Origin: Nitrospirota bacterium
GTDB taxonomy: Bacteria; Nitrospirota; Nitrospiria; SBBL01; JAADHI01
Direction of reading: 5' to 3'
Assembly (NCBI GenBank): GCA_029261215.1
Contig: JAJDBT010000118.1
Location: 9,121 to 73,120, forward strand
DNA length: 64,000 bases
This document shows, one piece after another, positions 21,110 to 54,494 of this stretch (the first letter of the stretch is position 1; every line of letters begins with the position of its first letter). The notes under the pieces are model-generated. The model searched no databases, was not told the origin of the DNA, and was given only the letters and a program-made list of their open reading frames with translations. A program made the translations under genes and the position numbers.

Positions 21110-22435
21110 TTATATCTTTTCCATTAGAAGGGCAATGCGGTCAAGATTGCGCTGTACCGCACCGCGATGATTGAATACGACATCATACGCCGCCTGGGCC
21201 CGCTGCTCATATTCTTCAGGGTGTTTAGACAACCACAATATCCGCTCAGCCAGTTCATTTCCGTCAGCCACTTGAATGCCACCGCCAGAACGTGTCAGCT
21301 GTTCTGCAATTTCCTGAAAATTCTCCATATGCCCTCCAAAAAAAACGGGCTTTTTACAGGCCGCGGGCTCCAAAGGGTTATGACCGCCAAATGGCGCAAG
21401 ACTTCCCCCCACAAAGATAAAATGCGCCAGGGCATAAAACGACGCAAGTTCACCCAGGGTGTCCATTAAAATGACCTTTGGCGTATCGACATCCTCCTTT
21501 AAACTCGGGCCTGAAATCTGCCCCTTTCGGATCGATTGAAAACCTGCGGCGCTGACCAGACCTTCCACCGCATCCAAACGCCCCAAATGGCGGGGGGCGA
21601 TCATCAACCTCAGCCCCGGCATCTTTGAGTGCAAGATACGGTACGCCTTCAGCACGGCGTCCTCTTCCCCTGGCCGAGTACTGCCCGCGATCATGAGCAA
21701 CTGATCTTCGGAGAGCCCCATCGCCGCGAAACTGGCGCATGCGCCAGAGACCTGATCCTCCGCCGAGCCTGCCTGATCATACTTCATATTTCCGGTTTCT
21801 TCCACCCGATTTAAGGGGGCGCCCAGCCTGATAAGACGTTCGGCATCCTGGGCAGACTGCATTAAAAAGAGAGACACATCATTCAATACCAGAGAAATGA
21901 AGGGGCGAAGTTTTTGATATCCGGGGAAACTCCTGGTTGAAATACGGCCGTTGGCCATGATCGAAGGGATTTTTCGTTTTGAGAGTGATCTCAAACAATT
22001 GGGCCAGATTTCTGTTTCCATAAAAATAAACAATGTGGGCGAAATCCTCCGCACCACACCCCTTGCAATCCAGAAATAATCGAAGGGGAAGTAGATAAAC
22101 GAGACCACAAAATCAGAAAGATATTCCCTGGCAGCGGCCTGACCCGTGGGGGTGATCGTCGAAAAAACGATAGCCGAATCAGGATGCCGCGCCTTGAATG
22201 AGCGGACAAAAAAACGGGACATCATCACTTCACCCACTGATGCCGCATGAATCCAAACAACCTTTTTCCCCTGAAGCAGCTTAAAAAATGTAGCGGGATA
22301 CAGGCCAAATCGCTGCGCCATATTTTTTCGATAAATTGGTTTTCTGAGTAAGGTGCCTAAAATAAAGAGCAAAAAGAAGGGAAGAAGCAGGAGCGTGATG
22401 CTTTGATAAAGACCTACAAAAAACAATTTTTTCAT
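21110..22435 (-). CDS. waaA: 3-deoxy-D-manno-octulosonic acid (Kdo) transferase
   Basis: It has an N-terminal membrane anchor and the WIHAASVGE motif. It directly abuts lpxK. Confidence 0.9.
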   Translation of the reverse strand: MKKLFFVGLYQSITLLLLPFFLLFILGTLLRKPIYRKNMAQRFGLYPATFFKLLQGKKVVWIHAASVGEVMMSRFFVRSFKARHPDSAIVFSTITPTGQAAAREYLSDFVVSFIYFPFDYFWIARGVVRRISPTLFIFMETEIWPNCLRSLSKRKIPSIMANGRISTRSFPGYQKLRPFISLVLNDVSLFLMQSAQDAERLIRLGAPLNRVEETGNMKYDQAGSAEDQVSGACASFAAMGLSEDQLLMIAGSTRPGEEDAVLKAYRILHSKMPGLRLMIAPRHLGRLDAVEGLVSAAGFQSIRKGQISGPSLKEDVDTPKVILMDTLGELASFYALAHFIFVGGSLAPFGGHNPLEPAACKKPVFFGGHMENFQEIAEQLTRSGGGIQVADGNELAERILWLSKHPEEYEQRAQAAYDVVFNHRGAVQRNLDRIALLMEKI

Positions 22436-22479
22436 GTTTTATACAACAAAAAACCATCGGAAGGGTGATATCAACAGAC

Positions 22480-24243: not shown

Positions 24244-25412
24244 GCCACAACCCGGGCATGGGCGACATTATGATGCACAGATTTTTTTTTAAGAGAACGA
24301 TTCAAAATACGTAAAATCGCCGATGCGGCCCGATCAGAAGCCCCCGGCTGCCCCAGACGATCAGCCACCTTCAATAAGCTTTTGTGCATTGCCTCACGTC
24401 CCGCATCGTCTTTTAAAAGGCGGCTGACTTCTTTTGCAATACGCTCCGAGGTGCAATCACCCTGAATGAGCTCTGGCACGAAAGGCTCCCCTGCCACAAT
24501 ATTCACAAGACTGACCGATTTTAAATGCACCAAGCATTTCGCAAGCCAGTAGCTTAGCCAAGACACCTTGTAGACCACCACCATCGGGGTCCCCGCCAAA
24601 GCGCCCTGCAAGGTCGCTGTTCCGGAAGTAACCACCGCCAGATCCGCATCCAGTAAAACATCATAGACCGAATCATTGATCAGTTTAACGGGAAAGGGGG
24701 CTGAGGCGGTAAGGCCGGGAATCAGATCTTCTGAAAGGGAAGAGGCCACGGGAATGATCACGCTTAAGTCCGGAAACGTGGCATGGAGTTTTTCCATACT
24801 CGCAAGCATCTCCGGTAAAATGGAGACCACTTCCCGGGTTCGGCTTCCGGGAAGCAGGGCAATGACCGGAGATAACCCGACTTGTTTCCGGTAATCCGGA
24901 AGCGCTCTGCCTTGAGTCGCACGGCTAAATTCGTCTAACAAGGGATTTCCGACAAACTCGCAAGGCACATGGGCGGCATCATAAATGGCTTTCTCAAAAG
25001 GTAAAATCACCAATATTTGCTCCACCCGCTCGGCAATTGTTTTGACCCGCCCTGCGCGCCAGGCCCAGACCTGCGGGCTCACATAATAAACCACGGGAAT
25101 CCCGCGTTCATTTGCCGCTTTCGCGACCCGCAGGTTAAACCCTGAAAAATCGATTAAAACCAACAGGTCCACTGACTCTTCGAGCAAGCGAACCGCCGTT
25201 CGGTAGGCCTCCAACAGCACTCTGAAATGAAAAACAATCTCAATAATACCGACAATACCGAGCCGCTTAATATCAAAACGGATCTCCACACCCGCCGCCC
25301 GCATCGCTTTTCCACCAAATCCGACGATCTCCATCTCATGATCTTTAGAAAAAAGGGCTTCCGCCAGGGCGCCGCCGTGCAAATCGCCCGAGGCTTCTCC
25401 GGAAACAATCAT
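24240..25412 (-). CDS. lpxB: Lipid-A-disaccharide synthase (GT19)
   Basis: The N-terminus reads MIVSGEASGDLHGG. I prefer ATG 25412, which has AAGGA upstream and does not overlap the preceding gene. Longer alternatives start at 25460 or 25538. Confidence 0.88.
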   Translation of the reverse strand: MIVSGEASGDLHGGALAEALFSKDHEMEIVGFGGKAMRAAGVEIRFDIKRLGIVGIIEIVFHFRVLLEAYRTAVRLLEESVDLLVLIDFSGFNLRVAKAANERGIPVVYYVSPQVWAWRAGRVKTIAERVEQILVILPFEKAIYDAAHVPCEFVGNPLLDEFSRATQGRALPDYRKQVGLSPVIALLPGSRTREVVSILPEMLASMEKLHATFPDLSVIIPVASSLSEDLIPGLTASAPFPVKLINDSVYDVLLDADLAVVTSGTATLQGALAGTPMVVVYKVSWLSYWLAKCLVHLKSVSLVNIVAGEPFVPELIQGDCTSERIAKEVSRLLKDDAGREAMHKSLLKVADRLGQPGASDRAASAILRILNRSLKKKSVHHNVAHARVVA

Positions 25413-25437
25413 GAGCCGGGGTCCTTTGTTTGCTGCT

Positions 25438-26418
25438 TTATGCTGGGGCTGTTTGACCATCTTTGATGAGATCCACGATTTGAAGCGCGACGTCGAGCGC
25501 CTTCCGTCCATCCTCTCCGGAAACCTTCGGGATTTCATCCGTTCGAATCGCCCCGATAAAAGCGGTCAATTCCCCTTTCAAGGGTTCCTCTTTTTCAGTG
25601 AACACCTTGTCTGATGTGATCGAAGGCGTCCCGTCCGCCTGGAGAACCCGGCGGCACACCCTCATTTCCTGATTGGCATAATCCAGTGAAAAATAGGCAT
25701 CGGGTTGAAAAATTCTGATTTTACGGAGTTTTTCTAGAGAGATCCGACTGGCCGTAATATTCGCGACACAGCCATTTGCAAAAGCCAGCCTCACATTGGC
25801 GATGTCAATCATCTCGGTCATCACCGAGGTGCCGGTCGCGCGAATCTCACTCAGTTCAGAGGGGACCAGAGACAAAATGATGTCAATATCGTGAATCATC
25901 AAATCCAGGATGACATGCACATCTATCCCCCGGCCCACAAAAGGCGCCACCCTGTGGCATTCAATAAAACGCGGGTTGATCAAGTACTCCTTCAACATTT
26001 TCACCCCGGTGTTGAACTGTTCAATGTGTCCGATCTGCAACATCGCTCCGGTCCGTTTTGAAATCGCAATCAAATCATCTGCTTCTTCGAGCGTTTTGGT
26101 GATGGGTTTTTCCAGCAACAAATGGATGCCTTTTCCCAACAAGATCTTTGCAACGGCATGATGCTCTGGTGTAGGGACAACAACACTCGCCGCATCAATC
26201 TTTTCTGTCACCTGGGTAAGATCCGTGTAGTATCGACACCCAAATTTTGTGGCAATTTCCTGTGCCCGGACTTCGCTCGCGTCCACGACCGCCACCAGCT
26301 CCACATCTTCCATTTCTGAATACACCCGTGCATGGTGCTGACCCAGAGAACCTACCCCGATGACTGCAACTTTCGTTTTTTGATCCATCATTATCCTATG
26401 ACCTGCGGTATCATCCAC
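25438..26418 (-). CDS. Gfo/Idh/MocA-family NAD-dependent oxidoreductase embedded in the lpx cluster (GnnA-like candidate)
   Basis: The Rossmann N-terminus reads KVAVIGVGSLGQHH. 326 aa, located between lpxI and lpxB. Confidence 0.8.
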   Translation of the reverse strand: MDDTAGHRIMMDQKTKVAVIGVGSLGQHHARVYSEMEDVELVAVVDASEVRAQEIATKFGCRYYTDLTQVTEKIDAASVVVPTPEHHAVAKILLGKGIHLLLEKPITKTLEEADDLIAISKRTGAMLQIGHIEQFNTGVKMLKEYLINPRFIECHRVAPFVGRGIDVHVILDLMIHDIDIILSLVPSELSEIRATGTSVMTEMIDIANVRLAFANGCVANITASRISLEKLRKIRIFQPDAYFSLDYANQEMRVCRRVLQADGTPSITSDKVFTEKEEPLKGELTAFIGAIRTDEIPKVSGEDGRKALDVALQIVDLIKDGQTAPA

Positions 26419-26436
26419 ATCATTTAAAGTATGATC

Positions 26437-27258
26437 CTACTCATATTCGGACTTCCCTCGATAGCCGACAACCGCAATCTTTGCGGCTTTCGCCTCCGCT
26501 ATAAATCGTTCTTTTTCGAGAACAATCGCCTTTCCCGCTTCCACCACCAATACGGAGGCTTTGACTTCTTTCATCGCTTGAATGGTTCCCGGCCCAATGG
26601 TGGGTAAATCAAAACGTAAATCCTGCTGGGGTTTGCAAATTTTAATGACAACCGATTTCTCTCTGCCCAAGATTCCGCCCCGGCGGATCGCGGCGTCTGT
26701 GCCTTCAATCGCCTCGACTGCCAAAATCACCCCTTTTCGAAGAACCACGCACTGACCGATATCGAGTGCACCCACTTTTTTGGCCAGAGGCCATCCCCAT
26801 TCGATATCGGCTTTTTCCTCTTTTTTCAGAGGACGAGTCCACTCTCCTTCTTCGGCCAGCAGAGGGTGTAAAAGAAAGGTTGATTCTTTGACCTGAATAC
26901 CCTCTTTTTCTAATGCGTCTGCAAACGCCCGGAGCAAGACATCATCTTTTTTTTCCTTAATTTTGCTTAAAATCGCCAAAGCTTTCAAATCGGGGCGAAA
27001 ATCAAAAATACGGGTCTTTTGAATTCCGCCCGCCATGACGGCTTCCTTCACACCTCTCTTTTTAAAAAAAGAGATTAGCTTTCCGAGCTGGCCGACACGT
27101 ATCCAGAGAATTTCATCGACTTGATCGGAGAGCGCGGGGTTTGTCTCGCCTTCATGAGCCGCCGCAATAACCGATAGGCCCAAGGCTTTGGCGCGCTCTG
27201 CAAAAATCAGGGGGAATTCACCGCTCCCGGCGATGAGACCAATTTTCCCCTTGTTCAC
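26437..27258 (-). CDS. lpxI: UDP-2,3-diacylglucosamine pyrophosphatase LpxI (DUF1009 family)
   Basis: The N-terminus reads IGLIAGSGEFPL. 273 aa. It occupies the lpxA-lpxB slot typical of lpxI. Confidence 0.82.
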   Translation of the reverse strand: MNKGKIGLIAGSGEFPLIFAERAKALGLSVIAAAHEGETNPALSDQVDEILWIRVGQLGKLISFFKKRGVKEAVMAGGIQKTRIFDFRPDLKALAILSKIKEKKDDVLLRAFADALEKEGIQVKESTFLLHPLLAEEGEWTRPLKKEEKADIEWGWPLAKKVGALDIGQCVVLRKGVILAVEAIEGTDAAIRRGGILGREKSVVIKICKPQQDLRFDLPTIGPGTIQAMKEVKASVLVVEAGKAIVLEKERFIAEAKAAKIAVVGYRGKSEYE

Positions 27259-28028
27259 CGGCAGATGCCTCGTTCTGACTTTTCAACAAAGGAAAGAAAA
27301 TCGTCCACTTTGGCATTGTCCGGCCATTTGTCTTTTGCTTCTTTAATGGCCTCACGCATCGTTAAACCCGACCGAAAAAGCAGTTTGTAGGTTGCTTTTA
27401 ATGTCTGAATCTCCTCGGGAGTAAAACCATGCCGCTTTAGACCAATGCTGTTTAATCCGTATAATTTGGCATGATTCCCAGCAACACGCACATAAGGCGG
27501 AACATCCTGCGCCACGGCAGAACAGCCGCCGATCATGGCATATGATCCAATCCGCACAAACTGATGCACACCGGAAAGTCCGCCAACAATGGCGTTGCTG
27601 CCGACCGTAATCGAACCCGCGAGCGTTGCGGCATTCGACATAATAATATGATCTCCCAGAATACAGTCATGCGCCACATGGACATAGGCCATCAGAACAT
27701 TGTGACTTCCGATTTGCGTTATCCCGCCGCCTGAGGCTGTGCCCCGGTGCAAAGTGACATACTCTCGAATCATATTATGATTGCCCACCTCTAGCCGGGT
27801 CTTTTCCCCCTTAAACTTCAAATCTTGCGGCTCAAGACCAATCGAGGCAAAAGGGTAAATGGTATTCGATTCACCCAGGGTCGTCCATCCGTCGATGACA
27901 ACGTGGGATCGAATGACTGTTCCTTTTCCAATACGGACATGCTCACCGATAATTGAATACGGGCCGACTTCGACAGACGAATCGAGCTCTGCTTTTTTAT
28001 GAATAATGGCTGTTGAATGAATGTTCAC
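27255..28028 (-). CDS. lpxA: Acyl-ACP:UDP-N-acetylglucosamine O-acyltransferase
   Basis: Hexapeptide-repeat left-handed beta-helix with a C-terminal helical domain. 257 aa, in the order fabZ-lpxA. Confidence 0.93.
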
Positions 28029-30129: not shown

Positions 30130-32520
30130 TTAAAAGAGTGAACCAATTGAAAACTCAACCGTTCTTTTAGGTTCACCCGGTCTGGGGTTCAGATTATGCC
30201 CCCACTCCAATCGCAGCGGCCCGACGGGGGAGATCCAACGAATGCCATACCCTGCGGACTCTCGCATACCACTTAGGGTAATCTGCTCCCCTTCGTCAAA
30301 TGCTGCACCATAGTCATAAAAAAGCAACAGCTTCACTTTGGCCTCTTTAACGATCGGGATGAGGTACTCAAAGTTAAAATAGGCTTCCTTGTTTCCACCC
30401 AAAATTTCACCACGGATTGGGCCCGTAGGAGGAGTTGCCAACGGGTCTCCGGGAATATCGGGAGCCCGAGGTCCGGCTTCACCAAAATCAAAACCTCTGA
30501 CCGTATTGATTCCGCCTACAAAAAAACGTTCCCCCAATGGAATTTCTTTTCCGTCAAGGCCTTCTGCAAACCCGAAGCGGCCATGCAAAGAAAAAATATG
30601 ATCCCACCACAAGGGAAAAAAGCGGCTTGAATCCACAATGACTTTGTAATACGCATTATCACCGCCTAAAACTGTTCCAGCATACTCAAAAGAGACAGAG
30701 TCCCGGCCCCCTTCTTTCGGGTCAAAAAAGAAATCCCGCGTGTCTCGTGAAACAGAAAAACCCAAGGCACTGGTTAAGGTCTCACCTAAGGCTTCCTGTC
30801 GAATCACCTGTAATGGCACCCTGGGATCCACTGATTGTGTCAGAACACCAACAGTTTCATCCGTGGTGACTAGACCTGTAGCAGGATCAATCAAGCGAAC
30901 CAACTGATCCAAGTCTGAAATTTCGAGCGTTTCAATGGTATAGCTGATACTACCTTTCACATATTCCCCGAACGATTTTCCCAGGATCATGTCGCCACCC
31001 GTTCGTTTTTCTTCATAGACACCAAAATCACGGACTTGATTGAAAAGATTGACCGTCCCGGAAAGCTCCCGGTCAAACAAATAGGGTTCTCGAAAGGTCA
31101 GGGTATAGGTATCGCGCCGTCCACCGGTTTCGACTTTAAATTTCACCAGCTGGCCTTTTCCCAAAAAATTTCCCATCGTAATGTCAAATGTGGCTACAAA
31201 TTTATCGACCGAGCTGTACCCTCCACCAATACTGAAGGTCCCTGTGGGTTTTTCCTTCACCTCAACATCAATGTCCACCCATCCCGGCGCAATCCGTCGG
31301 GGAACAAGATTAATGTCTTCAAAATAGTTCAGGTTGTTTAAGCGCTGAAAACTGCGACGCAGGGCCTTTGTATTGACCAATTCCTGCTCATTCACACGAA
31401 TTTCCCGACGAATCACCTTATCGCGTGTTTTATTATTTCCGGCGATGTGAATTTCCCGTACCTTCACCGGCTCGCCTTCAATAATATGAAAGGTCACATC
31501 AACTGTTAGGTCATCAGGGTTTGGCCGAAGATCCGGAACGATATTGGTATAAATATAGCCTTTCTCACCATAATGATCCGTCATTTCTCCGATATCATGC
31601 CTTAATTTTTCCCGGTTAAAAATCTCACCGGGTTGACTCTCTGTTAGAGCGGAAAGCGCTGTCGTATCAAAAAGTTCACCCCCCTCAAACCCGATTTCGC
31701 CAATCTTAAACTGCTCTCCTTCGCTGATTGAAAGCGTAATGTCAAAGTTGGCTTTATCTTCACTCAGTGTGACTTTGGGTTCCCCAACCTCGATATTTAA
31801 ATAACCGTTATTCAAGTAAAGATCTTTTATTCTCTCCCGATCAAAGGCCAACTGTTCTTTTTTGTAGCGGCCAGATTCCGTCATCCATGAACTCAACCAA
31901 AAATAAGTATCTGTTTCCATCTGCTTTCGGATTTTTTTTGTCTTGAAAACCTTGTTGCCTTCAATTTCGATATTTCGAATATAGACCTGATCACCTTCTT
32001 CAATTAAAAATGTGAGTACCACCTGATTTTCGGGCAGTTTTTGAATGACTGGAATGACAGATGCGTTGTAATAGGCATCTGCTTCATAAGTGGCCTGAAC
32101 CTGTTTTACATAACTTTTAATCGCCTTTTTATCGAAAAAAGTATTTGTCTTTATTTGCAAGGCTTCATTGAGGCTGTCCTTCTCAATATTTTCATTGCCC
32201 TCAAAGACAACCTCCATGAGAAAAGGTTTTTCGTGAACAATAAAATGGAGTGCAAGACCGCCTTCAAGTCCTTCAGATTCGACTTCTACAAGATCAAAAA
32301 ATCCCATTCGATAGATATTTTTAATATTCGATTGCACCTTCTCAGGTGAGAAAAAATCACCTTCCGCAATTGAAAGATGAGACAAAATCGTCATACGGTC
32401 AATTCGGCGATTTCCTTTAATCTCAACTGATTTGATTTCAATCGCTTTATCTTCTGCATACACTGCACTGGATACGAAGAGTAGGATCAAACAAACGAAC
32501 AACTGCCAAGGTTTTGTCAA
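30130..32520 (-). CDS. bamA: Outer membrane protein assembly factor BamA (Omp85)
   Basis: A signal peptide and POTRA-type N-terminal repeats precede an Omp85 barrel ending in FSIGSLF. 796 aa with a TTG start. Confidence 0.93.
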   Translation of the reverse strand: MTKPWQLFVCLILLFVSSAVYAEDKAIEIKSVEIKGNRRIDRMTILSHLSIAEGDFFSPEKVQSNIKNIYRMGFFDLVEVESEGLEGGLALHFIVHEKPFLMEVVFEGNENIEKDSLNEALQIKTNTFFDKKAIKSYVKQVQATYEADAYYNASVIPVIQKLPENQVVLTFLIEEGDQVYIRNIEIEGNKVFKTKKIRKQMETDTYFWLSSWMTESGRYKKEQLAFDRERIKDLYLNNGYLNIEVGEPKVTLSEDKANFDITLSISEGEQFKIGEIGFEGGELFDTTALSALTESQPGEIFNREKLRHDIGEMTDHYGEKGYIYTNIVPDLRPNPDDLTVDVTFHIIEGEPVKVREIHIAGNNKTRDKVIRREIRVNEQELVNTKALRRSFQRLNNLNYFEDINLVPRRIAPGWVDIDVEVKEKPTGTFSIGGGYSSVDKFVATFDITMGNFLGKGQLVKFKVETGGRRDTYTLTFREPYLFDRELSGTVNLFNQVRDFGVYEEKRTGGDMILGKSFGEYVKGSISYTIETLEISDLDQLVRLIDPATGLVTTDETVGVLTQSVDPRVPLQVIRQEALGETLTSALGFSVSRDTRDFFFDPKEGGRDSVSFEYAGTVLGGDNAYYKVIVDSSRFFPLWWDHIFSLHGRFGFAEGLDGKEIPLGERFFVGGINTVRGFDFGEAGPRAPDIPGDPLATPPTGPIRGEILGGNKEAYFNFEYLIPIVKEAKVKLLLFYDYGAAFDEGEQITLSGMRESAGYGIRWISPVGPLRLEWGHNLNPRPGEPKRTVEFSIGSLF

Positions 32521-32555
32521 GGGACCCGCTACTCCTTCAGACTCAAAATCTGCTT

Positions 32556-32584
32556 ATGCTATCATATGCATCAGGGCCTGTAAA
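32556..32584 (-). promoter_or_regulatory. Possible sigma70-like promoter upstream of bamA (TTTACA-17 nt-TAGCAT on the minus strand)
   Basis: The hexamers lie at 32579-32584 and 32556-32561. The match is only moderate. Confidence 0.3.
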
Positions 32585-32741
32585 CAGATTGAACCCGGAG
32601 ATAAAAACCGGAATTTTCGCCCCTGTGCGTAAACATTACCCCACCGGTTTTTACACGACAAACAAGAACATTCATAAAGAACAGCTTAAGTCTCAGGAGA
32701 ACTGAGCAGGATCTGAATATCCTAATCAGGAACGATCAAGC

Positions 32742-35700
32742 CTAAGGGGATGAAGTATTTACAGTAATGGCCACAGGACTTTGTAAGCCCGTTTTATCAC
32801 CGGCAAGGGTTTTAAGGGGAGATTGCCCAGTTGCGGTACTCGCATCCGGGAAAATATAAACTGCGTTTGCATCACGATCCGCGACGTACAGGATATCTTT
32901 ACCAGCGTCCACAAAAATACCGGAAAGCTTAACCATAAAATTATTTCCGTTCCCGTCTCGACCGGTAATGACTCGCGAAGGCGAGGCATTACCACTTAAG
33001 CTGGAGGCATTTTCAAAAACAAGCACTTCGGTTTTACCCTGATTCAAGACATATAAAATGTCACGGACAGAATCAAGGGCAAGGCCAGCGGGCTCATCCA
33101 ATCCGCTCTGGACACCGCTTAAAAAAAGACTTCGGGCGGCTGCCCCTTCCACAGAAAAAACAAGGACGGCATTGTTTCCATGACTCGCAATATAAAGTCG
33201 CTTCCGAAGCCCATCCACAGCAAGTCCGCGCGGGCTGATTAAATCAGGATCAGAGATGGTTTCACTTGGCGTTTGCCCATCAAGCAAAGTACTTGCATCG
33301 TTAAACACCAATACGGCATTGCAGGGTAAGGTGCCGCAACTGATGGATTCACTATTTGATACATACAGCCGATCCAGAGCACTGTCGATCACCAGTCCTG
33401 CGGGACGATTGAGCTGAAGATTATTCAAGTCCCTTTTTCCCGTTGTGGCATCCAGTGTGACATCCACTTTATCGGCTTTTTCGAGGATCGAAAGCGTATT
33501 GCTTCCTTGATTGGCAACATACAGCACATTTTTTATCGGGTCGAGCGCGAGGGCTTCCGGCGAAACAAAACCGCCACTGCCATCAGACCAAATCTTGCTG
33601 GGCGGCACCCGGCCTTCAATGCCATACACAAGCAAGGCCCCACCCGAACAGCCCGAAACACAATTTTTTTGAGCCGACTGGGCCACATAAAGCGTGTCGT
33701 TATTTTTATGTTTTGAAAGGAAAACAGCGCCGGTATAGCGCCTGAGCGGGGTGGTTCCCGCGTCCTGCCAAAACGCCAGCCGGGTTTTATCCCCGCTGAG
33801 TTTTTTTACTTTAGTTAAATCGACATCCGCACAAACACCCGTCCGATCAAGGCAAGCACTCGTCGCATCGCCGAGGGTACTGGCTTCCTGAAAGGTGAGC
33901 ACCGCTTCCGGATACGTGACAGAACCTTCAACATGAGAAGCCGATTTAATGAGGAAAAGCCGGTTCGTCGCAAGATCCACATAGGGCGAAATAGGCGCTT
34001 TTAATTTTTTCTGAGGATCTGCAAAACCTTCCGTTGAAATAATCCGGTCCGGTAAACAAGGTGCAGCAAAACAGGCAGTCCCACCGTCTCCCTTGGTACT
34101 GGCATTTTCATAAACGTACACCGTGTTGTCGCTTGAGACTCCGGTTTCGACGCCGTTGTTTGTAACATAAAGAATGTCGCGCTGGGTATCGATAAAAACA
34201 CCATAGGGTTTTTTCAAGCCTGTAATTTCACGTTCTTTCAACCACGGACCCGCCGGCGGCGGTAATTTAAAGACCACGACACTATTGTTGTTTTTATCCG
34301 CGACATAAACTTCGCCCCTGGCCTCATCGACCGTCATTGCCGTCGGACCACCTGGACTTAAACCATCTGTACCCCGATTCAGGGCACCCGGAGCCTGGAG
34401 ATCAACCTTAGAGGTTTCTGAACCTGAAGGGCCATCCGCATTATTTATCGGAAAAGGCACAGGGGTCACACCGTTAGAAAAGCTCGTATTCAAATTGTAA
34501 GCAATCAAACCATACTTTGCCGGAGAACCAACAGAAGAACCATCCGCGACAAGCATCAAATTTCGGGTTTTATCGATATACACGCCTCTTGGCATATTGA
34601 AGGAACTGCCGCCAATCGTCCAATCCGGGGCTTTGGAAACATTAAAACTTTCGTCACTGACATGATTATAAACAGTGATTGGATATAACGAAGGAGTCAT
34701 GCCATTTCCGGCGTTTGAGATATACAGACGATCCAGCGCGAGGTCATAAAAAACACCACTGGGCACATTTAGAAGCGTTGTCGTCGCAGCCCCAAAATTT
34801 TCTTTCAAGGGTGCGGTGTTTTCCTCCACGACATAAATAAAAATATTATTCGCACCCGTATTGGCGATATAAGCAGTGTCCCGTGTTGGATCAAAAGCGA
34901 GCCCGACCGGACTTGAAAGGGTGGTGCCGGTCTCAGGGCTGACATCGCCTCCTATTCTGGAGTCTGGAGACAGCTCGCAAGAAGATGGGCTCGCAAGAAG
35001 AGGACAGACCATATCGATCTCGTTAAATACCACCACGGAAGGACTGTCCACATTATTTCCTGTTGATGAATTCACATTATTAGGACTGTTATTATTGACG
35101 ACAATCACCCTTCCCCGCGTCTCATCCACGGCAATGCCCGCAGGCACCGTCAATCCGCTATTGAGTCCGGTAATCACTCGTTCAGGAACCACGCCGCCAT
35201 TCAGTGTGCTGGCATCTTCATAAATCAAAACCGCAGGCTGATTTAGACCGGTATTCACAACGTAAAGCCGGTCATTCACACGATCGAGGGCAATACCAAA
35301 GGGCAATTCAAGCTTGCTCACACTCTTGTCGAGATCCTCATGTGGAGAAATGATCCGTGTCGGGGGGATGTTACAGCTTGTAAAATCGTTTATGCAGGAG
35401 GCGGGCGAGGCACCAAGGGCATTTGCATTGTCATACACTAAGATTGAATCGCTTCCTGCATTGGAGATGTAAAGGAGGTTCTTGCTAGGATCAATCGCAA
35501 GCGCCCGTGGAAAATCGAGCTGGGTCTGATCACCCACCAAAAGAGTACAAGGCAGAATGTCTCCATCAAGTGGAGCCGCTGAGATACAACTGGAGTGAAA
35601 GGCAGTGATGGTATTTCCGCCTCTGTTTGCGACAAAAAGACGCTCCGTGACACCATCAAAGGCCACGGCATAAGGCTCGTCCATCAACGTTTTGCTTCCC

Positions 35701-36146
35701 GATATCACACGAGTGGGCTGGGGGGAACCGGTTAGAGTGCTAGCGTTTTCATAAATTTGAATGGCATTTTGGGCTGTATTGGCCACATAAAGCGTGTCAT
35801 TGCTTCGATCCAAAAAGACCCCGGTCGGACCCGTGATCGCATTCGGGAACTGACGGTCAGGAAAGACATTTCCATCTGGTACGCGGGGAACGATTTTTGA
35901 CTGGGCCGTTTTTGAGTTGGAAGATAAAGGGTCAAAAGCAAGGAGCCGACCATCGCCCCCATTGGCCACATAGAGCGAGCCTCCAAAGGTAAAGGTCTCC
36001 TGAGCGGCTGTTTTCGGAGCAGGTCCTGCTGTTTCACCACAAGCAGAGAGAATAAAATAAAAGAGAATGAGCAAACAGAGAGGAAACCTCCGTTTGAACC
36101 CTTCGATGAGAACGTCTACTGTTTCAATCCTGCTTCTCAATATCAT
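32742..36146 (-). CDS. Giant beta-propeller-repeat lipoprotein (YVTN/NHL-like blades, about 18 repeats), unknown function
   Basis: Lipobox ILSAC is present. About 18 copies of a blade core occur, such as DTLYVAN..N.I.IY and DRLYVSN.... A linker motif (Y/F)ENAS(T/S)L...P.R.I.G recurs. Seven short Cys pairs sit in the loops. Confidence 0.8.
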   Translation of the reverse strand: MILRSRIETVDVLIEGFKRRFPLCLLILFYFILSACGETAGPAPKTAAQETFTFGGSLYVANGGDGRLLAFDPLSSNSKTAQSKIVPRVPDGNVFPDRQFPNAITGPTGVFLDRSNDTLYVANTAQNAIQIYENASTLTGSPQPTRVISGSKTLMDEPYAVAFDGVTERLFVANRGGNTITAFHSSCISAAPLDGDILPCTLLVGDQTQLDFPRALAIDPSKNLLYISNAGSDSILVYDNANALGASPASCINDFTSCNIPPTRIISPHEDLDKSVSKLELPFGIALDRVNDRLYVVNTGLNQPAVLIYEDASTLNGGVVPERVITGLNSGLTVPAGIAVDETRGRVIVVNNNSPNNVNSSTGNNVDSPSVVVFNEIDMVCPLLASPSSCELSPDSRIGGDVSPETGTTLSSPVGLAFDPTRDTAYIANTGANNIFIYVVEENTAPLKENFGAATTTLLNVPSGVFYDLALDRLYISNAGNGMTPSLYPITVYNHVSDESFNVSKAPDWTIGGSSFNMPRGVYIDKTRNLMLVADGSSVGSPAKYGLIAYNLNTSFSNGVTPVPFPINNADGPSGSETSKVDLQAPGALNRGTDGLSPGGPTAMTVDEARGEVYVADKNNNSVVVFKLPPPAGPWLKEREITGLKKPYGVFIDTQRDILYVTNNGVETGVSSDNTVYVYENASTKGDGGTACFAAPCLPDRIISTEGFADPQKKLKAPISPYVDLATNRLFLIKSASHVEGSVTYPEAVLTFQEASTLGDATSACLDRTGVCADVDLTKVKKLSGDKTRLAFWQDAGTTPLRRYTGAVFLSKHKNNDTLYVAQSAQKNCVSGCSGGALLVYGIEGRVPPSKIWSDGSGGFVSPEALALDPIKNVLYVANQGSNTLSILEKADKVDVTLDATTGKRDLNNLQLNRPAGLVIDSALDRLYVSNSESISCGTLPCNAVLVFNDASTLLDGQTPSETISDPDLISPRGLAVDGLRKRLYIASHGNNAVLVFSVEGAAARSLFLSGVQSGLDEPAGLALDSVRDILYVLNQGKTEVLVFENASSLSGNASPSRVITGRDGNGNNFMVKLSGIFVDAGKDILYVADRDANAVYIFPDASTATGQSPLKTLAGDKTGLQSPVAITVNTSSP

Positions 36147-36238
36147 CCCATCGAGAAAACCCGAGCTGGCCTATAGGAGCACACAGAACGAGCAGGTTGC
36201 ATCACCCAGAAATGTGACACCCTGTAAAGGGGAGCAAA

Positions 36239-36841
36239 TCAGGCTTCACCTTCACCCAATTGATACCGGACAAACCGTCTAACCTGAATATTCTCTCCTA
36301 CCTTTGCAACCGTTTCTGCAACAAACTCCAATACGGTAATCTCTGGATTTTTGAGATACGGTTGCTCCAGTAGACAAATAGATTGAAGAAACTTGGTGAC
36401 CTTGCCTTCTGCAATTTTTTCGATCACCGCTTCAGGTTTTTTTGATTCCATGGCTTGTGCTTTAAAAATCGCACGTTCCTTTTCGATGAGCTCTTCAGGA
36501 ACCTCTTCTTTACGAACATAAAGCGGGGGTGGGTTTGAACCGGCGATTTGCATCCCCAGATCCTTCACCAATCCCTGAAATTCAGGATTACGGGCTACAA
36601 AGTCCGTCTCACAATTTACCTCGACCATAACGCCAATTTTTCCGCCTGCATGGATGTAAGACCCGATTAGGCCCTCTTCTGTGCTTCGGCCTGATTTCTT
36701 GGACGCTGTTGCAAGACCCTTCTTTCGAAGAAAAACGATCGCCTTTTCGACATCTCCATCCGATTCCTGGAGCGCGACTTTGCAATCCATAATACCGGCT
36801 CCCGTTTTCTCTCGGAGCGACTTTATTGCATTAACTCCCAA
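36239..36841 (-). CDS. tsf: Translation elongation factor Ts
   Basis: The N-terminus reads IKSLREKTGAGIMDCKVAL. This is the short 200-aa form, located downstream of rpsB. Confidence 0.93.
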   Translation of the reverse strand: MGVNAIKSLREKTGAGIMDCKVALQESDGDVEKAIVFLRKKGLATASKKSGRSTEEGLIGSYIHAGGKIGVMVEVNCETDFVARNPEFQGLVKDLGMQIAGSNPPPLYVRKEEVPEELIEKERAIFKAQAMESKKPEAVIEKIAEGKVTKFLQSICLLEQPYLKNPEITVLEFVAETVAKVGENIQVRRFVRYQLGEGEA

Positions 36842-36900
36842 ACTCCCCTCCTTACCCTTCTAATATCCATCTGATCAACTTCACCGAGGTGTTGAGGTGT

Positions 36901-37746
36901 TCAGGATGCAGCATCCTTCGCTTCCGTCGCAGCTACAGCAACTTCCACTGGGGGCACCTCCTCGGGGACTGTTTTTTTAATCTCTTCGGCGACCTTCGTC
37001 GCGGCCTCTGACGACGTTTCGACGGGAGCTACAATCTCGGCATCGCCCTTTTCTTGCAGGCGGAAACCCTCTATCGCCGCATCCGCAATCCGGCTTGTGA
37101 TCAGTCGAATGGCGCGAATCGCATCATCATTTCCAGGGATCGGATAATCAATTTCGTCCGGGTTGCAATTCGTATCAACAATCGCGATTATTGGAATCCC
37201 CAATCGTCTGGCTTCGAGAACAGCTGTTTTTTCTTTAATCGTATCAATAATAAACAATGCTGAGGGGAGACGTTTTAGGTTTTTCATACCGCCCAACGTT
37301 TTATCCAGCTGAACCCGGGCCTTTTCAAGTTTGATCACTTCTTTTTTGGGCAAACGATCATACGTCCCGTCTTTATCGGCTTCTTCAAGCGCCTTGAGTT
37401 TCTTTATGCTTTGTTTGATCGTCGCATAGTTCGTCAGCATCCCGCCGAGCCAACGATGATTCACAAAAAACATATTACAACGACTGGCTTCTTCCCCAAT
37501 AATTTCTTGCGCCTGCCGTTTTGTCCCGACAAACAAAACCGACTCACCGGCCTCAGCCAATCCACGAACAAATGCATACGCTTTGGTAAAGGCCTTCACT
37601 GTTTTTTGAAGGTCAATAATATAGACGTTGTTGCGCTCTCCAAAGATATATTTCTCCATCTTTGGGTTCCATCGTTTTGTTTGGTGACCAAAATGGACAC
37701 CGGCTTCTAATAACTCCCCTACTTCAATAACAGGCATATCAAACAC
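36901..37746 (-). CDS. rpsB: 30S ribosomal protein S2
   Basis: Carries [15 protein letters not shown] and IDTNCNPD blocks, with an acidic C-terminal tail. Confidence 0.96.
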
Positions 37747-37979
37747 TCCTTTTTTGGTCTCATCCTCCGCTCCTTCTTAACATGACCTTAAGATATCATG
37801 AACACCGGAAACCTGCGTCTCAATCTAAGAATGAGGCAGGGACCAAACCGGATGTTAGAGCGTGTGTATTTTAGTTAACGCGCCTAAGCGCACGAAGGCG
37901 GAAGGATAGCATAAAAATAAATTAAATTACAACAGGAAAGGCAGGATTTAAGGCTACGGAAAAAGGCCTTCGTCTTTTT

Positions 37980-38588
37980 TTAATGAAGAGGCGGCGGGAT
38001 CTTCAGGCGTTTCAGCTCATACTGCTGGATTGCATCTTCCTGGGCCAGCGTTAAAGCAATATCATCCAATCCATTCAACAAGCTGGTTCGCCGAAAAGGA
38101 CTAATATCGATTTTAAACGACAGGCCGTCGTCCGAGAAGATTTTCTCTTGCTCAAGATCCACAGTCAGCATATAACCAGGGTTTTTCTGAACGGCCTTAA
38201 AAAGAGATTCGACCTCGGATTCTGTTAATCGGACAGGAAGAATTCCATTTTTAAAACAATTGTTGTAAAAAATATCGGCAAAAGAAGGGGCGATAATACA
38301 CTTAAATCCATAATCCAGTAATGCCCAGGGTGCATGCTCCCGTGAAGACCCGCATCCAAAATTGTCACGCGCAACCAAAATGGAGGCCCCTCGATAAGAA
38401 ACCGCGTTCATTTCAAAATCAGAATTTAGTTGCCCGTCTTTCGTAAACCGCCAATCATAGAACAGAAATTCACCAAAGCCGGTTCGCTCAATCCGCTTTA
38501 AAAACTGCTTGGGAATGATTTGGTCGGTGTCTACGTTGGGAAGATCAAGCGGGGCGACAACCCCCGTCATTACCTTAAAAGGTTCCAT
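37980..38588 (-). CDS. leuD: 3-isopropylmalate dehydratase small subunit
   Basis: Aconitase swivel domain with [13 protein letters not shown]. Adjacent to leuC. Confidence 0.93.
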
Positions 38589-40738: not shown

Positions 40739-43549
40739 TTGTCCAGCAATAAAACGCTACATTTCGCCGCGCTTCTGCTTGTAACCATCTTCCTTTCATC
40801 TTGCATTGACGATAAAACAGCCCCCTCGTCGGATGTCGCGGCCACAACCGTTGCGGTCTCAATCGAACCAAATCTAAGCACCACAGTGCCGAAAAGTGGA
40901 GCGATCGCATACACCGCTTCGGTCACTGGATCTGGCAATACCGCTGTAAAATGGAGTATCCAGGAAGGCGCCTCCGGCGGAAACATTACCAATAAAGGAT
41001 TGTATACGGCACCCGCAACAGTAGGCACATTTCATGTGATCGCCACCAGCCAGGCCGACCCCGGAAAAAGCGCCACGGCGACTGTGACCGTATCTTCCAT
41101 TCTAGATGCCAGCTTTGCCTCAAACGGCAGTATTTCGACGCCTTTTACAAGTATCGACATTATTAACAGCATTGCACAACAAGCCGACGGGAAAATTGTC
41201 GTCGGAGGATACTCACTCAACGGAACAGAAACGGATTTCGCACTGGCCCGTTATCTTAGCAACGGCATCCTCGATACTTCTTTCGGAACCAATGGCATTG
41301 TGGTGACTTCTCTGGGAGGAAGTACCGAAATCAAAGCAATCACCTTGCAGGATGACGGAAAAATCCTGGCGGGTGGGAACACCTCCAACACTGAAAACAG
41401 CAATTTTGTACTGGCCCGGTATTTGAAAAATGGGACACTTGATCCCGATTTTGGAAACAACCGTACTGGTTTCATTAAAACCAGCATTAATGTGGGGAAT
41501 GACAAGCTAAATGCCATCGCGCTTTTGCCAAACGGAAAGATCGTTGCAGGTGGATTTTCCGCCGTGACCACAACCAACGATATTGGCAGCGTGAGGAATA
41601 AATTTGCCCTGGTGCAATATCAATCCAACGGAACGCTTGATCCGACTTTCGACACCGACGGCATGCTCACCACCGCCATCGGAACAGGCAATGAAGAAAT
41701 TCTTGCTCTGACCATTGATTCTAACGGAAAAATTATCGCAGGAGGCTTCTCATCCAATGGCAGCAATAATGATTTTGCGCTTGCGCGCTACAACAGTGAT
41801 GGCAGCTTAGACACCAGTTTTGACGCCGATGGAAAACTCACCACGCCCATCGGAACAGGCAATGAACGCATCACCAGCTTGGCCATTGATTCTAGCGGAA
41901 AAATTGTCGCAGGAGGCTTTGCAGCAATTGGCGCAACGAACGATTTTGCGCTTGCGCGCTACGACAGTAATGGTAGCTTGGACACCACCTTTGACACCGA
42001 CGGAAAACTCACCACCGCCATCGGGACCAGCGACGAAGAAATCAGGGCTTTGGCTGTGCGTTCTAACGATAAAATCATTGCCGGGGGATTTGCTTCATTC
42101 TCAGGAAACAGAGACTTCGCACTCGTCGCATACAATGCCGATGGCAGTTTAGACACCAGCTTCGATACGGATGGCAAGCTGACCACCACAATTGGAACAG
42201 GAACCGATGAAATCAACACCCTGCTTCTCCAGCCGGATGACAAGATCGTCGTTGGCGGATTTTCCTTCGTCGGAACAAGTCCAGCCTTCGCCCTCGCAAG
42301 ATACACTGCTAACGGCAGCCTGGACACCACCTTCCACACGGACGGAAAACTAAGCACATTGATTGGGGGCGGGGCAGATGAAATTAATGCGGTGGCCCTT
42401 CAAGCCGACAATAAAATCATCGCCGCCGGATTTACCTTCGGGACCAACAATATCAGAAACAAGGATTTTGCATTGACCCGTTACAATAGCGACGGCACCC
42501 TCGACACGACCTTTGGAAACAACGGGAAAGTCACCACGGCAATCGGGAGTACCGCCAGCAATGGGCATGACATTATCAATGATATTTCCATTCAAAGCGT
42601 CGATGAAAAAATCGTCGCCGCCGGGTCTTATCGCAATGGGAGTAATGGGGACGATTTTGTTCTGGCAAGATACACCGTCAACGGCACCCTTGACACCAGC
42701 TTCGGCACAGGCGGCCTTGTCAAAACCACGATCAACACTAACGATGAAACAATCAATGCCCTTGTCCTGCAGCCAGACGGCAAAATTGTTGCGGCGGGAA
42801 CCTCCTTTACAACCGGAACCGCACCGAACCATCACGACTTTACCCTCGCACGTTACAACACCAATGGCACGCTCGACACCAGCTTTGGCGCAAGCGGCAT
42901 ACAAAAAACGCCGATTGACAATGGGAGCTTTGCGGAAGCGGTCGTACTTCAGTCCGACGGAAAAATTGTCGTGGCGGGCTCCTCAGAAAGCAATACCGGC
43001 TTTGACTTTGCGCTCGCTCGATATAACCTTGATGGCACGATTGATACGAGCTTTGGTATTGACGGAATCGTCAGAACCCCCGTCAGCACAGGGCATGATT
43101 TTGCAAACGCGATAAAAATTCAAAGCGACGGAATGATCGTCGTTTCGGGAACAAGCTTTTCAGGGGCATCGCCCGAACAATTCGCTGTCGTGCGTTATAA
43201 CAGTGATGGAAGTCTCGACAGCAGTTTTGGCACAGGCGGAATGGTCACAACAGCAATTGCCAACGGGGCACAGCCCTTTGCCCTTGTCATTCAAGATGGG
43301 AAAATTGTGCTGGGCGGCTTTTCGATCAGCATACTCAACAACCGTGATTTCACGCTCGTCCGCTATCTATCGGATGGCACATTGGACCCCGCATTTGGTG
43401 TAAATGGCATTGAGATCTCGCCCTTTAGCCCTGCGATAGACGAGATCCACGACCTTATCCTCTCGGATGGCCAGATTCTCGCCGCCGGGTTTTCCGTCAA
43501 CGGCTATGGGGAGAATACGGATTTCCATTTAGCCCGTTACGCGCCTTAA
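40739..43549 (+). CDS. Delta-60-repeat beta-propeller lipoprotein with an N-terminal Ig-like domain, unknown function
   Basis: Lipobox LSSC is present and an Ig-like segment ends ...GKSATATVTV. About 14 units of roughly 57 aa follow, of the form DFALARY..DGSLDTSFDTDGKLTT.IGTG.DEI.AL...DGKIV.GGF. Confidence 0.82.
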   Translation: MSSNKTLHFAALLLVTIFLSSCIDDKTAPSSDVAATTVAVSIEPNLSTTVPKSGAIAYTASVTGSGNTAVKWSIQEGASGGNITNKGLYTAPATVGTFHVIATSQADPGKSATATVTVSSILDASFASNGSISTPFTSIDIINSIAQQADGKIVVGGYSLNGTETDFALARYLSNGILDTSFGTNGIVVTSLGGSTEIKAITLQDDGKILAGGNTSNTENSNFVLARYLKNGTLDPDFGNNRTGFIKTSINVGNDKLNAIALLPNGKIVAGGFSAVTTTNDIGSVRNKFALVQYQSNGTLDPTFDTDGMLTTAIGTGNEEILALTIDSNGKIIAGGFSSNGSNNDFALARYNSDGSLDTSFDADGKLTTPIGTGNERITSLAIDSSGKIVAGGFAAIGATNDFALARYDSNGSLDTTFDTDGKLTTAIGTSDEEIRALAVRSNDKIIAGGFASFSGNRDFALVAYNADGSLDTSFDTDGKLTTTIGTGTDEINTLLLQPDDKIVVGGFSFVGTSPAFALARYTANGSLDTTFHTDGKLSTLIGGGADEINAVALQADNKIIAAGFTFGTNNIRNKDFALTRYNSDGTLDTTFGNNGKVTTAIGSTASNGHDIINDISIQSVDEKIVAAGSYRNGSNGDDFVLARYTVNGTLDTSFGTGGLVKTTINTNDETINALVLQPDGKIVAAGTSFTTGTAPNHHDFTLARYNTNGTLDTSFGASGIQKTPIDNGSFAEAVVLQSDGKIVVAGSSESNTGFDFALARYNLDGTIDTSFGIDGIVRTPVSTGHDFANAIKIQSDGMIVVSGTSFSGASPEQFAVVRYNSDGSLDSSFGTGGMVTTAIANGAQPFALVIQDGKIVLGGFSISILNNRDFTLVRYLSDGTLDPAFGVNGIEISPFSPAIDEIHDLILSDGQILAAGFSVNGYGENTDFHLARYAP
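41600..42370 (+). repeat. In-frame 171-nt tandem DNA repeats inside the delta-60-repeat gene (approximate bounds)
   Basis: The same phase marker (ggaacaggcaatgaa / gggaccagcgacgaa / ggaacaggaaccgat) occurs at 41681, 41852, 42023 and 42194, exactly 171 nt apart. The run gattttgcgcttgcgcgctac is identical in adjacent units. Confidence 0.8.
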
Positions 43550-54382: not shown

Positions 54383-54494
54383 TTTTCACCTAAGAAATAA
54401 AATCTTACGATATTACCAACACGATTTTACAACACTGCTTTATCGAAATGCCAGTTTATCGGATAATCAGCCTCTTTATATCTCTATACGGCCC

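Follow-up and report, generated by a model that had tools for sequence, protein, structure and literature searches.

A predicted lipoprotein with 18 NHL-type blades beside rpsB-tsf in Nitrospirota: a candidate binding scaffold in the envelope

In the window, i.e. the whole stretch of 64,000 nucleotides of Nitrospirota DNA analysed here, the interval between tsf and bamA is occupied by a gene, hereafter gene X (32742..36146, (-) strand; stop codon at 32742-32744 in the ORF call), encoding a 1134-aa prolipoprotein. In the reading that is favoured here with moderate confidence, X would be a lipid-anchored envelope protein with 18 NHL-type blades acting as a non-catalytic binding scaffold, its gene belonging to the rpsB-tsf unit and bamA being juxtaposed to it by lineage. 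The chain would comprise a tether of about 18 residues followed by the 18 NHL-type blades, most likely arranged as three six-bladed propellers. Regarding novelty, X is of a known NHL-type propeller kind in a new, triple-module and lipid-anchored form, which is an ordinary-to-moderate finding.

Export signal and propeller architecture

Residues 1-35 form the signal peptide, which together with Cys36, the predicted lipidation site, spans 36039..36146 (-); a long charged n-region, MILRSRIETVDVLIEGFKRR, is followed by an h-region and the lipobox LSAC (FILSAC). Taking as the hallmark of a lipoprotein a lipobox [LVI][ASTVI][GAS]C that closes a hydrophobic h-region and is preceded by a positively charged n-region, X, which reads KRR-FPLCLLILFYFI-LSAC, corresponds to the type II signal peptide pattern, with lipidation predicted. 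Cys36 is kept in 43 of 44 homologues, and an n-region peptide, L-R-x-x-I-E-T or R-S-x-R-D-N-T-V, recurs throughout the family. Its type II signal peptide and conserved lipobox Cys mark X, by prediction, as an envelope protein exported through Sec and modified by lipid. The outer membrane is its probable destination, as suggested by a +2 residue that is mostly Gly or Ser when the E. coli sorting rule is transposed to a Nitrospirota host. Tat export, a possibility prompted by the KRR residues, was rejected as most homologues have no twin-arginine motif. A public entry 100% identical to X (P0001) is annotated 24 codons shorter (1110 aa); since KRR lies just ahead of the h-region, the ATG/TTG start further upstream is preferred over this database call.

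Beyond the flexible tether (residues 37-54; 35985..36038, (-); pLDDT <50 for residues 29-53), 18 repeat units are counted, 17 of them having all four strands and one being made up of a B-C-D part at the N-terminus (57-100) and an A strand at the C-terminus (1124-1130). The about 18 propeller blades announced by the sequence-only reading are thereby recovered as 17 full units and a split one, in agreement with the full-length AlphaFold2 (AF2) model, which is all-beta (pLDDT 84, pTM 0.77) with 72 strands in regular A-B-C-D order. Pfam NHL (PF01436) is matched with 91.3 bits for a cut-off of 20. Residues 405-795, that is the six central units, are predicted to fold alone into six closed four-stranded blades (pLDDT 85, pTM 0.89), with the caveat that AF2 might close any six similar blades. 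In Foldseek comparisons, this fragment model aligned with the six-bladed Pizza6 (TMt 0.70-0.73, covering all of Pizza6), with the Brat NHL domain (TMt 0.60-0.66) and with the seven-bladed YncE (TMt 0.56, below the six-bladed NHL matches). Because the six central units fold alone and superpose on six-bladed NHL propellers, X is most likely composed of three six-bladed NHL-type propellers (3 x 6), and the HMM and structure prediction that had been proposed as a check on propeller number come out, as a prediction, on that side.

Strand order, loop lengths and the prediction for a single fragment are what suggests a 6+6+6 split with closure by the terminal strand. Proposed propeller 1 (residues 55-404; 34935..35984, (-)), the boundary of which is inferred, would hold the N-terminal B-C-D part-blade and five full blades. 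Proposed propeller 2 (residues 405-795; 33762..34934, (-)), delimited from the AF2 fragment, Foldseek and conservation, would hold six complete blades and is the least conserved third of the protein, while proposed propeller 3 (residues 796-1134; 32745..33761, (-)), delimited from strand order and conservation, would hold six blades and the terminal A strand. Judging by strand order, this strand 1124-1130 probably completes the N-terminal part-blade. The YWTD propeller of the LDL receptor is built in the same order as X: a part-blade of strands B-C-D opens the chain, five full blades follow, and an A strand at the C-terminus closes the ring. The blade-by-blade similarity matrix of X contains no period-6 signal of triplication, and larger homologues (1375-1450 aa) carry loop insertions of ~65 aa instead of extra blades or propellers. 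A 680-aa homologue (P0049) was discarded as a guide to module boundaries, since it aligns only to X residues 23-640 and is perhaps a truncated or disrupted copy; the chromosome that bears it (L013) holds X-like matches in several broken pieces.

The 14 Cys of X are distributed in seven close pairs, exactly as quoted in the sequence-only reading. Proposed propeller 1 contains the pairs 187/200 and 381/390, about 86-95% conserved in X homologues, together with the variable pair 251/258; proposed propeller 2 contains the variable pairs 692/697 and 765/772, these three variable pairs being conserved in 50% of the homologues at most; proposed propeller 3 contains 829/833 and 937/942, about 70-80% conserved. 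Several C-D and B-C loops would be stapled by short, putative disulfides, which fits with folding in an oxidising periplasm or at the cell surface.

Among known systems, the six-bladed NHL propellers (PF01436; the designed Pizza6 proteins, Brat/TRIM-NHL, plant SOQ1, human NHLRC2) share with X the blade motif (P-x-G-v-a-v-D, L-Y-V-A-D/N, third strand), and Pizza6 comes first in a PDB profile search with X (1.6e-23). X differs from them by having three modules head to tail without spacer domains, blades of about 52 aa instead of about 42, an extended C-D loop with N-A-S-T-L..G...P-x-R, putatively disulfide-stapled loops, a lipoprotein anchor and, probably, a single split blade contributed by both chain ends. 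For the full X model, the top Foldseek matches are the YWTD propellers of LRP2/LRP4/LRP6 and DDB1 (E 1e-25 to 1e-16), the latter a triple propeller; all are eukaryotic multi-propeller arrays, yet their global TM-scores against X are low (0.13-0.24). Unlike the modules of X, YWTD propellers have EGF modules between them and form rings that are closed individually, and the Pfam model for YWTD/LDL-receptor class B repeats (Ldl_recept_b) scores 18.5 bits, under its cut-off of 21. E. coli YncE, a periplasmic and non-enzymatic propeller binding ssDNA, is the best NCBIfam match of X (NF052280, 80.8 bits, far under the cut-off of 400) and shares its LYV(A/T)N strand motif, but has seven blades, is not a lipoprotein and gives a weaker fold match.

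Genomic neighbourhood and expression signals

All the identified neighbours of X lie on the (-) strand, namely rpsB (36901-37746; NCBIfam), tsf (36239..36841; NCBIfam and synteny), a short 200-aa form that is the conserved upstream neighbour, and bamA downstream (30130..32520; NCBIfam TIGR03303, 679 bits), followed by skp, lpxD, fabZ and lpxA, also identified with NCBIfam, in a cluster that runs on into lpxI, lpxB, msbA, kdtA, lpxK and more. The ORF calls and NCBIfam neighbours bear out that the lipoprotein stands alone between tsf and bamA, as first read from the sequence, with no credible ORF besides X in this interval; coordinates likewise give 92 nt from tsf to X and, as previously reported, 221 nt from the X stop to the bamA start. 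Neither pyrH, frr nor paralogues of X occur within the window.

Across lineages, X travels with rpsB-tsf and not with bamA, the adjacency of the latter being a lineage-specific juxtaposition. In the nine related lineages bearing X, the conserved block is FKBP-leuC-leuD-rpsB-tsf-X, so that tsf lies upstream of X in 9/9 of these type-1 lineages, and the downstream gene varies. Where this downstream gene is readable (eight type-1 lineages), it is bamA in three: the window itself and, with identities of 67% and 53%, L020/L021 and L007. After X, L004/L017 have an RNase H-like gene and lgt, and L006, L008 and L009 a gene for a cytochrome c-domain protein. Deeper homologues occur as two to three tandem copies after panC in Manganitrophaceae-like genomes, and the canonical order rpsB-tsf-pyrH-frr is retained in relatives with a tsf 65-70% identical to that of the window. 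With some 13 clusters at 50% identity, the family of 18-blade proteins is small; all its named members belong to Nitrospirota and, as far as these sequences go, it is limited to a small group of this phylum.

An element overlapping the X start codon, GTTTTCTCGAT-N9-ATTGAGAA-N7-T/CGAAACA (36119..36160, (-)), was delineated by cross-lineage conservation, with the same or almost the same letters in L020, L004/L017, L005, L016 and the window. It contains an inverted repeat, UUCUCGAU / AUUGAGAA, every stem pair of which is invariant, hence there is no covariation signal to read, and an Rfam scan of 32400-38100 (E <= 1) gave no match, this element included. Given the 92-nt gap devoid of a terminator-like site and followed by the conserved start region, X would be joined to the rpsB-tsf transcription unit. 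The scan for terminator-like sites found none in the tsf-X or X-bamA gaps, with counts equal to those in shuffled sequence, and the two gaps, when folded as RNA, did not exceed shuffled sequence in stability (z = -0.86 and +0.91).

Ahead of bamA stands a sigma-70-like motif (TTTACA, 17 nt, TG-n-TAGCAT; 32556..32584, (-)), recognised by consensus match and conservation. All three lineages in which bamA adjoins X share it, and it is retained in the window, L019, L020/L021 and L007, the rest of the X-bamA gap having diverged; bamA appears to have its own conserved promoter. The motif occurs once in the window versus 0 expected; the scans for promoters and terminators register matches to a consensus only, with counts no higher than in shuffled sequence. 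When metagenomes were scanned with this motif for bamA loci lacking X, none encoding bamA was found among the matches listed, which were at least 120 and were chance matches.

Candidate roles

Over 44 homologues, the ~185 columns of the X family that are invariant or at least 90% conserved include no His, Glu or Lys; P, G, D, L, Y and N, located at repeat positions, make up most of them. This composition argues against an enzyme, with the proviso that it leaves room for catalysis by Asp, Asn, Arg or bound metals, and X would most likely be a non-catalytic platform binding other envelope components. A periplasmic hydrolase of the lactonase/arylesterase/SMP-30 type, in which the centres of the propellers would provide as many as three active sites, is very unlikely in comparison, even though Pfam Lactonase PF10282 and Arylesterase PF01731 each score 68 bits and SGL PF08450 44 bits, and the PGAP label 'beta-propeller fold lactonase family protein' is attached to some X homologues. 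The best stretches amount to one or two blades (profile 257-320 of 344, 52-85 of 86, 130-211 of 246), so that X lacks a match to the whole seven-bladed Lactonase domain (257-320 of 344) and matches the SMP-30/gluconolactonase/arylesterase profiles only in part. The NCBIfam scores are 27 bits for 6-phosphogluconolactonase (NF008258; cut-off 370) and 81 for YncE (cut-off 400). Moreover, the conserved Asp residues occupy the same structural position in every blade, and the best fold match is with non-enzymatic NHL domains. A clear assignment to a characterised enzyme family, which the sequence-only reading had named as fatal to its view, is therefore not what emerged, the lactonase, arylesterase and SGL similarity being confined to single blades.

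The same reading had seen in the position next to bamA a hint of a role in outer-membrane biogenesis. X would then be a BAM accessory lipoprotein, i.e. a BamB analogue docking on the POTRA domains of BamA and aiding outer-membrane protein assembly. Like BamB, X is a propeller lipoprotein, anchored by inference in the same membrane, and in three lineages it lies directly upstream of bamA-skp-lpxD-fabZ-lpxA and the long lipid A cluster. However, bamA is adjacent in only those three of the eight readable lineages, this adjacency being absent from at least five other X-bearing lineages and from every panC-type locus, and a conserved promoter-like motif separates it from X. The comparison of the tsf-bamA interval in relatives, which had been suggested as decisive, thus reveals no conserved bamA linkage and largely undoes the proposal. 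BamB itself is eight-bladed and PQQ-like, hence of another blade number and type, with no sequence similarity to X, and no PQQ-like or BamB match was obtained in Pfam (E <= 1) or NCBIfam (E <= 0.001). Every outer-membrane bacterium needs BAM, yet the X family is limited to a small group within Nitrospirota. These sequence comparisons lend no support to a part for X in assembling outer-membrane proteins, the probability of a BAM accessory is slight indeed, and X matters little for outer-membrane biogenesis, as the evidence fails to link its gene to BamA.

X could also sit at the cell surface or in the outer periplasm and there contribute to an adhesive or structural layer, or serve, in Mn/Fe-oxidising relatives, as the scaffold of porin-cytochrome complexes for extracellular electron transfer, which is rather unlikely although several observations point this way. 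Its blade type also fills giant multi-repeat proteins of 2000-6600 aa, typical of surface proteins, and FG-GAP/RHS giants are found among the neighbours of X homologues. In L025 and L027, the neighbours include a multihaem cytochrome of ~1010 aa with a 356-aa NHL propeller and an FGE-sulfatase-like protein, besides the cytochrome c-domain protein of L006/L008/L009. A preprint (10.1101/2022.05.06.490989) reports that NHL propellers occur in clusters for electron uptake and stabilise cytochromes of the outer membrane, and porin-cytochrome complexes have been proposed for Manganitrophaceae (PMC9040806). Yet the cytochrome and giant neighbours differ from locus to locus and are for the most part encoded on the other strand, X has no cytochrome nearby in the window, and these two publications do not mention the X family; a literature search of Manganitrophus/Manganitrophaceae papers found no mention either. 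Very improbable as a whole is a more elaborate combination, in which X would form a closed trimer of propellers and a Troglogloeales/Nitrospirota-specific part of an outer-membrane machine (BAM/LPS-assembly accessory or periplasmic porin-cytochrome scaffold for Mn/Fe oxidation), with the start-codon hairpin coupling its translation to rpsB-tsf expression. If the favoured reading as a non-catalytic scaffold is true, the X family would mark a lineage-specific envelope feature of a Nitrospirota group including manganese oxidisers.

The blade motif and its occurrence

In the DSSP assignment of the model, the motif Y/F-x-N/D-A-S-T-L-x-G-x3-P-x-R-x-I-x-G corresponds to the loop after strand C and to strand D of each blade. 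The recurrence of a motif that the sequence-only reading did not recognise therefore stands, but it is not a linker between blades, nor is it unusual, since it is common in metagenomic proteins. Neither Pfam nor NCBIfam has a dedicated model for the X-type blade found in lipoproteins of ~345 aa, and by sequence the motif would be part of a widespread but uncurated NHL-like blade subtype. With such abundance in metagenomes and no curated family, a dedicated profile would better annotate thousands of 'lactonase-like' hypothetical proteins. The metagenomic lipoproteins of ~345 aa (such as P0108, P0140, P0178 and P0197) have a consensus identical to that of X, LYVAN-G-NSI-VF-NAST--GN-AP-R-I-G--T-L--P-G--VD. 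These 'NAST' proteins have six blades, hence one propeller versus the three of X, many of them carry a lipobox and their range, as far as one can judge, extends beyond Nitrospirota.

Architecture and distribution of the propeller lipoprotein

The protein encoded between tsf and bamA (hereafter X; 1134 residues, 32742-36146, minus strand) is an NHL-type propeller lipoprotein of fixed, most likely triple-propeller form and limited to one bacterial group. As the sequence-only reading had proposed a large Cys-stapled propeller lipoprotein, its ORF, lipobox, blades and Cys pairs were all recovered. The N-terminus, MILRSRIETVDVLIEGFKRR-FPLCLLILFYFI-LSAC, has a lipobox behind a charged n-region and an h-region; the lipobox Cys is kept in 43 of 44 full-length homologues. 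This n-region (36087-36146, minus strand) is unusually long, about 20 aa, and its peptide is shared by homologues from both genomic contexts described below (MILRSRIETV.., LRNHIET.. or MIRSQRDNTVTSYSF); P0001, an identical protein in public data, was annotated from a start 24 codons too far downstream (1110 aa) and lacks the charged n-region. The seven short Cys pairs previously claimed are all present, built from 14 Cys besides that of the lipobox, with conservation of about 86-95% for pairs 187/200 and 381/390, about 70-80% for 829/833 and 937/942, and at most 50% for the remaining three.

As established by motif search and DSSP of the AlphaFold2 model (mean pLDDT 84, pTM 0.77), strand order is strictly regular, namely A (P-x-G-v-a-v-D), B (L-Y-V-A-N), C (i-l-V-Y/F) and D (R-v-I). 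Ahead of seventeen complete units comes a partial one with strands B-C-D (residues 57-100), and a single A strand (1124-1130) ends the series, i.e. 18 blades with the one made of both chain ends, in agreement with the earlier estimate of about 18. Since the A-to-B turns are uniformly short (all 4 residues, except one of 6), no propeller boundary can fall within an A-B turn. Just one blade is split, that formed by the two chain ends, and its N-terminal part is therefore inferred to be completed by the C-terminal strand.

Regarding the number of propellers, residues 405-795, comprising six complete units, were folded apart from the rest of X, alongside the corresponding segments of 17 homologues, and gave a pLDDT of 85 and a pTM of 0.89, with the caveat that AF2 may make a ring of any six blades that resemble one another. 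In Foldseek searches of the PDB, this module matched the six-bladed Pizza6 designs over the whole target (TMt 0.70-0.73), the NHL domains of Brat (TMt 0.60-0.66) and SOQ1 (TMq 0.53), and the seven-bladed YncE (TMt 0.56). For the full model, the matches were multi-propeller proteins (LRP2/4/6, DDB1), whose low global TM is in line with a chain of several domains. Together with single-propeller relatives of about 345 aa and longer homologues that carry loop insertions of about 65 aa instead of extra blades, these matches make three six-bladed propellers the best-supported predicted architecture. No period-six signal was found in blade-to-blade similarity; mean column conservation is 0.61 in the first third, 0.49 in the middle and 0.60 in the last. 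The homologues P0074, P0076 and P0077 contain one to three of the insertions, whose common pattern (..VTVT.G...V.G.GT.F...L..GD.I.I......V..I..D..LTL..P..) looks like a small beta domain set in propeller loops.

The recurrent motif Y/F-x-N/D-A-S-T-L-x-G-x3-P-x-R-x-I-x-G, initially taken for an unfamiliar linker, is indeed no textbook YVTN or NHL repeat but covers the loop between strands C and D, where A-S-T makes a one-turn helix, and then strand D itself. Pfam and NCBIfam hold no dedicated model for this blade, which is weakly detected by the NHL, Lactonase, Arylesterase, SGL and YncE models. Searched against 1.84 billion cluster representatives, the X-family profile retrieved 1556 at E < 1e-30, including giants of 2000-6600 aa and six-blade proteins of about 345 aa; the blades of the latter, several of which have a lipobox, follow LYVAN-G-NSI-VF-NAST--GN-AP-R-I-G--T-L--P-G--VD with hardly a deviation. 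Judged from these matches, the motif is not peculiar to X and the blade subtype is common, though uncurated.

Full-length collinear relatives amount to about 50 sequences (1064-1212 aa, 29-67% identity; about 13 clusters at 50% identity). All those named by organism belong to Nitrospirota (Nitrospiria, Candidatus Manganitrophaceae, or MAGs labelled 'Nitrospira sp.'), as do 13 of 14 genome loci; the remaining one, L018, is a weak match (21% identity) in an Acidobacteria MAG.

Genomic context and linkage to bamA

The tsf-X-bamA interval described beforehand is borne out by ORF coordinates and NCBIfam neighbour calls. On the same strand as X, leuC, leuD, rpsB and tsf (36239-36841) lie upstream, the latter separated by 92 nt, and bamA (30130-32520; TIGR03303, 679 bits) follows after 221 nt, then skp, lpxD, fabZ and lpxA. 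Further downstream, Pfam identified lpxI, a GFO/IDH/MocA oxidoreductase, lpxB, an MsbA-like ABC exporter, kdtA and lpxK, the block ending with a lipid A acyltransferase and a heptosyltransferase; neither pyrH nor frr was found within the window. The lipid A/LPS cluster that follows bamA-skp, from lpxD to the heptosyltransferase (17494-28028, minus strand), is contiguous and unusually complete, with lpxI and not lpxH, and its oxidoreductase between lpxI and lpxB may resemble GnnA, which occurs in organisms whose lipid A contains a diamino-sugar (GlcN3N).

Among relatives, two contexts occur. In type 1, FKBP-leuC-leuD-rpsB-tsf-X is found in the window and in loci L020/L021, L007, L004/L017, L005, L006, L008, L009 and L016. 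What follows X differs between loci: L004/L017 have an RNase H-like gene and lgt, L006, L008 and L009 a cytochrome c-domain protein of about 390 aa, and bamA-skp-lpxD-fabZ-lpxA is confined to the window, L020/L021 and L007. In type 2, hosted by Manganitrophaceae-like genomes, dapF-dapA-dapB-aminotransferase-folK-dNK-panC precedes two or three tandem X paralogues, themselves followed by an FGE-sulfatase-like protein, a multihaem cytochrome of about 1010 aa and a 356-aa NHL protein, by an RHS/FG-GAP giant or by znuABC. The canonical rpsB-tsf-pyrH-frr order is encountered in Nitrospirota whose tsf is 65-70% identical to that of the window, one such genome carrying X homologues at the panC locus. 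Given this canonical order and the variable gene after X, gene-order comparison indicates that the tsf-X adjacency is a clade-specific rearrangement and that the X-bamA adjacency is narrower still. Linkage to bamA is largely not kept among relatives, and the suggested role with BamA finds no support in comparative evidence.

Several neighbours deserve mention. Divergently upstream of FKBP-leuCD-rpsB-tsf-X lies a protein of 936 aa (40739-43549, plus strand) that contains 12 beta-propeller repeats of the DUF5122 type; this arrangement recurs in L019, L020 and L004, so that another large propeller protein is conserved nearby. Two further envelope-type proteins of very large size are encoded at 50150-59231 (minus strand). 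One, of 1410 aa, contains thrombospondin type 3 as well as FG-GAP repeats; the other is a TPR protein of 1578 aa whose C-terminal part is outer-membrane-like (DUF1302). Adjoining the tandem paralogues on the opposite strand, L025 (16739-23381) and L027 (20127-23354) hold the FGE-sulfatase-like gene, the multihaem cytochrome c (about 1010 aa), the 356-aa single NHL propeller and a 630-aa protein, which may form a porin-cytochrome-type cluster.

Putative function

Pfam and NCBIfam matches revealed neither a tie to a characterised enzyme nor similarity to BamB/PQQ proteins; the lactonase, arylesterase and SGL matches span one or two blades, and scores against equivalog models are far below cut-offs. 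His, Glu and Lys are all missing from the about 185 invariant or nearly invariant columns, and where Asp is conserved it falls at the same structural position in every blade. The family is not mentioned in the literature searched. With moderate confidence, X is considered a putative non-catalytic binding platform anchored in the envelope, which fits with the lipid anchor, the flexible tether, the loops stapled by disulfides, the three rigid propellers predicted, the frequent tandem paralogues and the neighbours, often large surface proteins or cytochromes. A role as electron-transfer scaffold is a minor but live alternative, favoured by the reported occurrence of NHL propellers in electron-uptake clusters (10.1101/2022.05.06.490989) and by the porin-cytochrome complexes proposed for Manganitrophaceae (PMC9040806).

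Elements flanking and overlapping the gene

The X-bamA gap has diverged in the three bamA-adjacent lineages except for TTTACA, 17 nt, TG-n-TAGCAT, then AGGAG. This sigma-70-like motif (32556-32584, minus strand) occurs once in the window, for none expected, and is a probable promoter for bamA and its lipid A cluster. No terminator-like site was detected in either the tsf-X or the X-bamA gap by a scan without statistical power here. GC content of X resembles that of its flanks (0.47-0.51; 32500-36500), and plus-strand GC skew is about zero over the gene (-0.08 to +0.02) compared with -0.10 to -0.19 in same-strand flanking genes, which probably reflects the amino-acid composition of the repeat, foreign origin being a conceivable alternative cause.

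Overlapping the start codon of X, an element of about 42 nt (36119-36160, minus strand; GTTTTCTCGAT-N9-ATTGAGAA-N7-(T/C)GAAACA) shares its conserved nucleotide sequence with the tsf-X gaps of L020, L004/L017, L005 and L016, with zero synonymous changes over seven codons. It had no match in Rfam, and showed no covariation because the stem is invariant. By way of an inverted repeat, a Shine-Dalgarno-like loop, GG(G/A), and the conserved TTG come to lie in a hairpin of 9-10 bp, and the element may control translation initiation.
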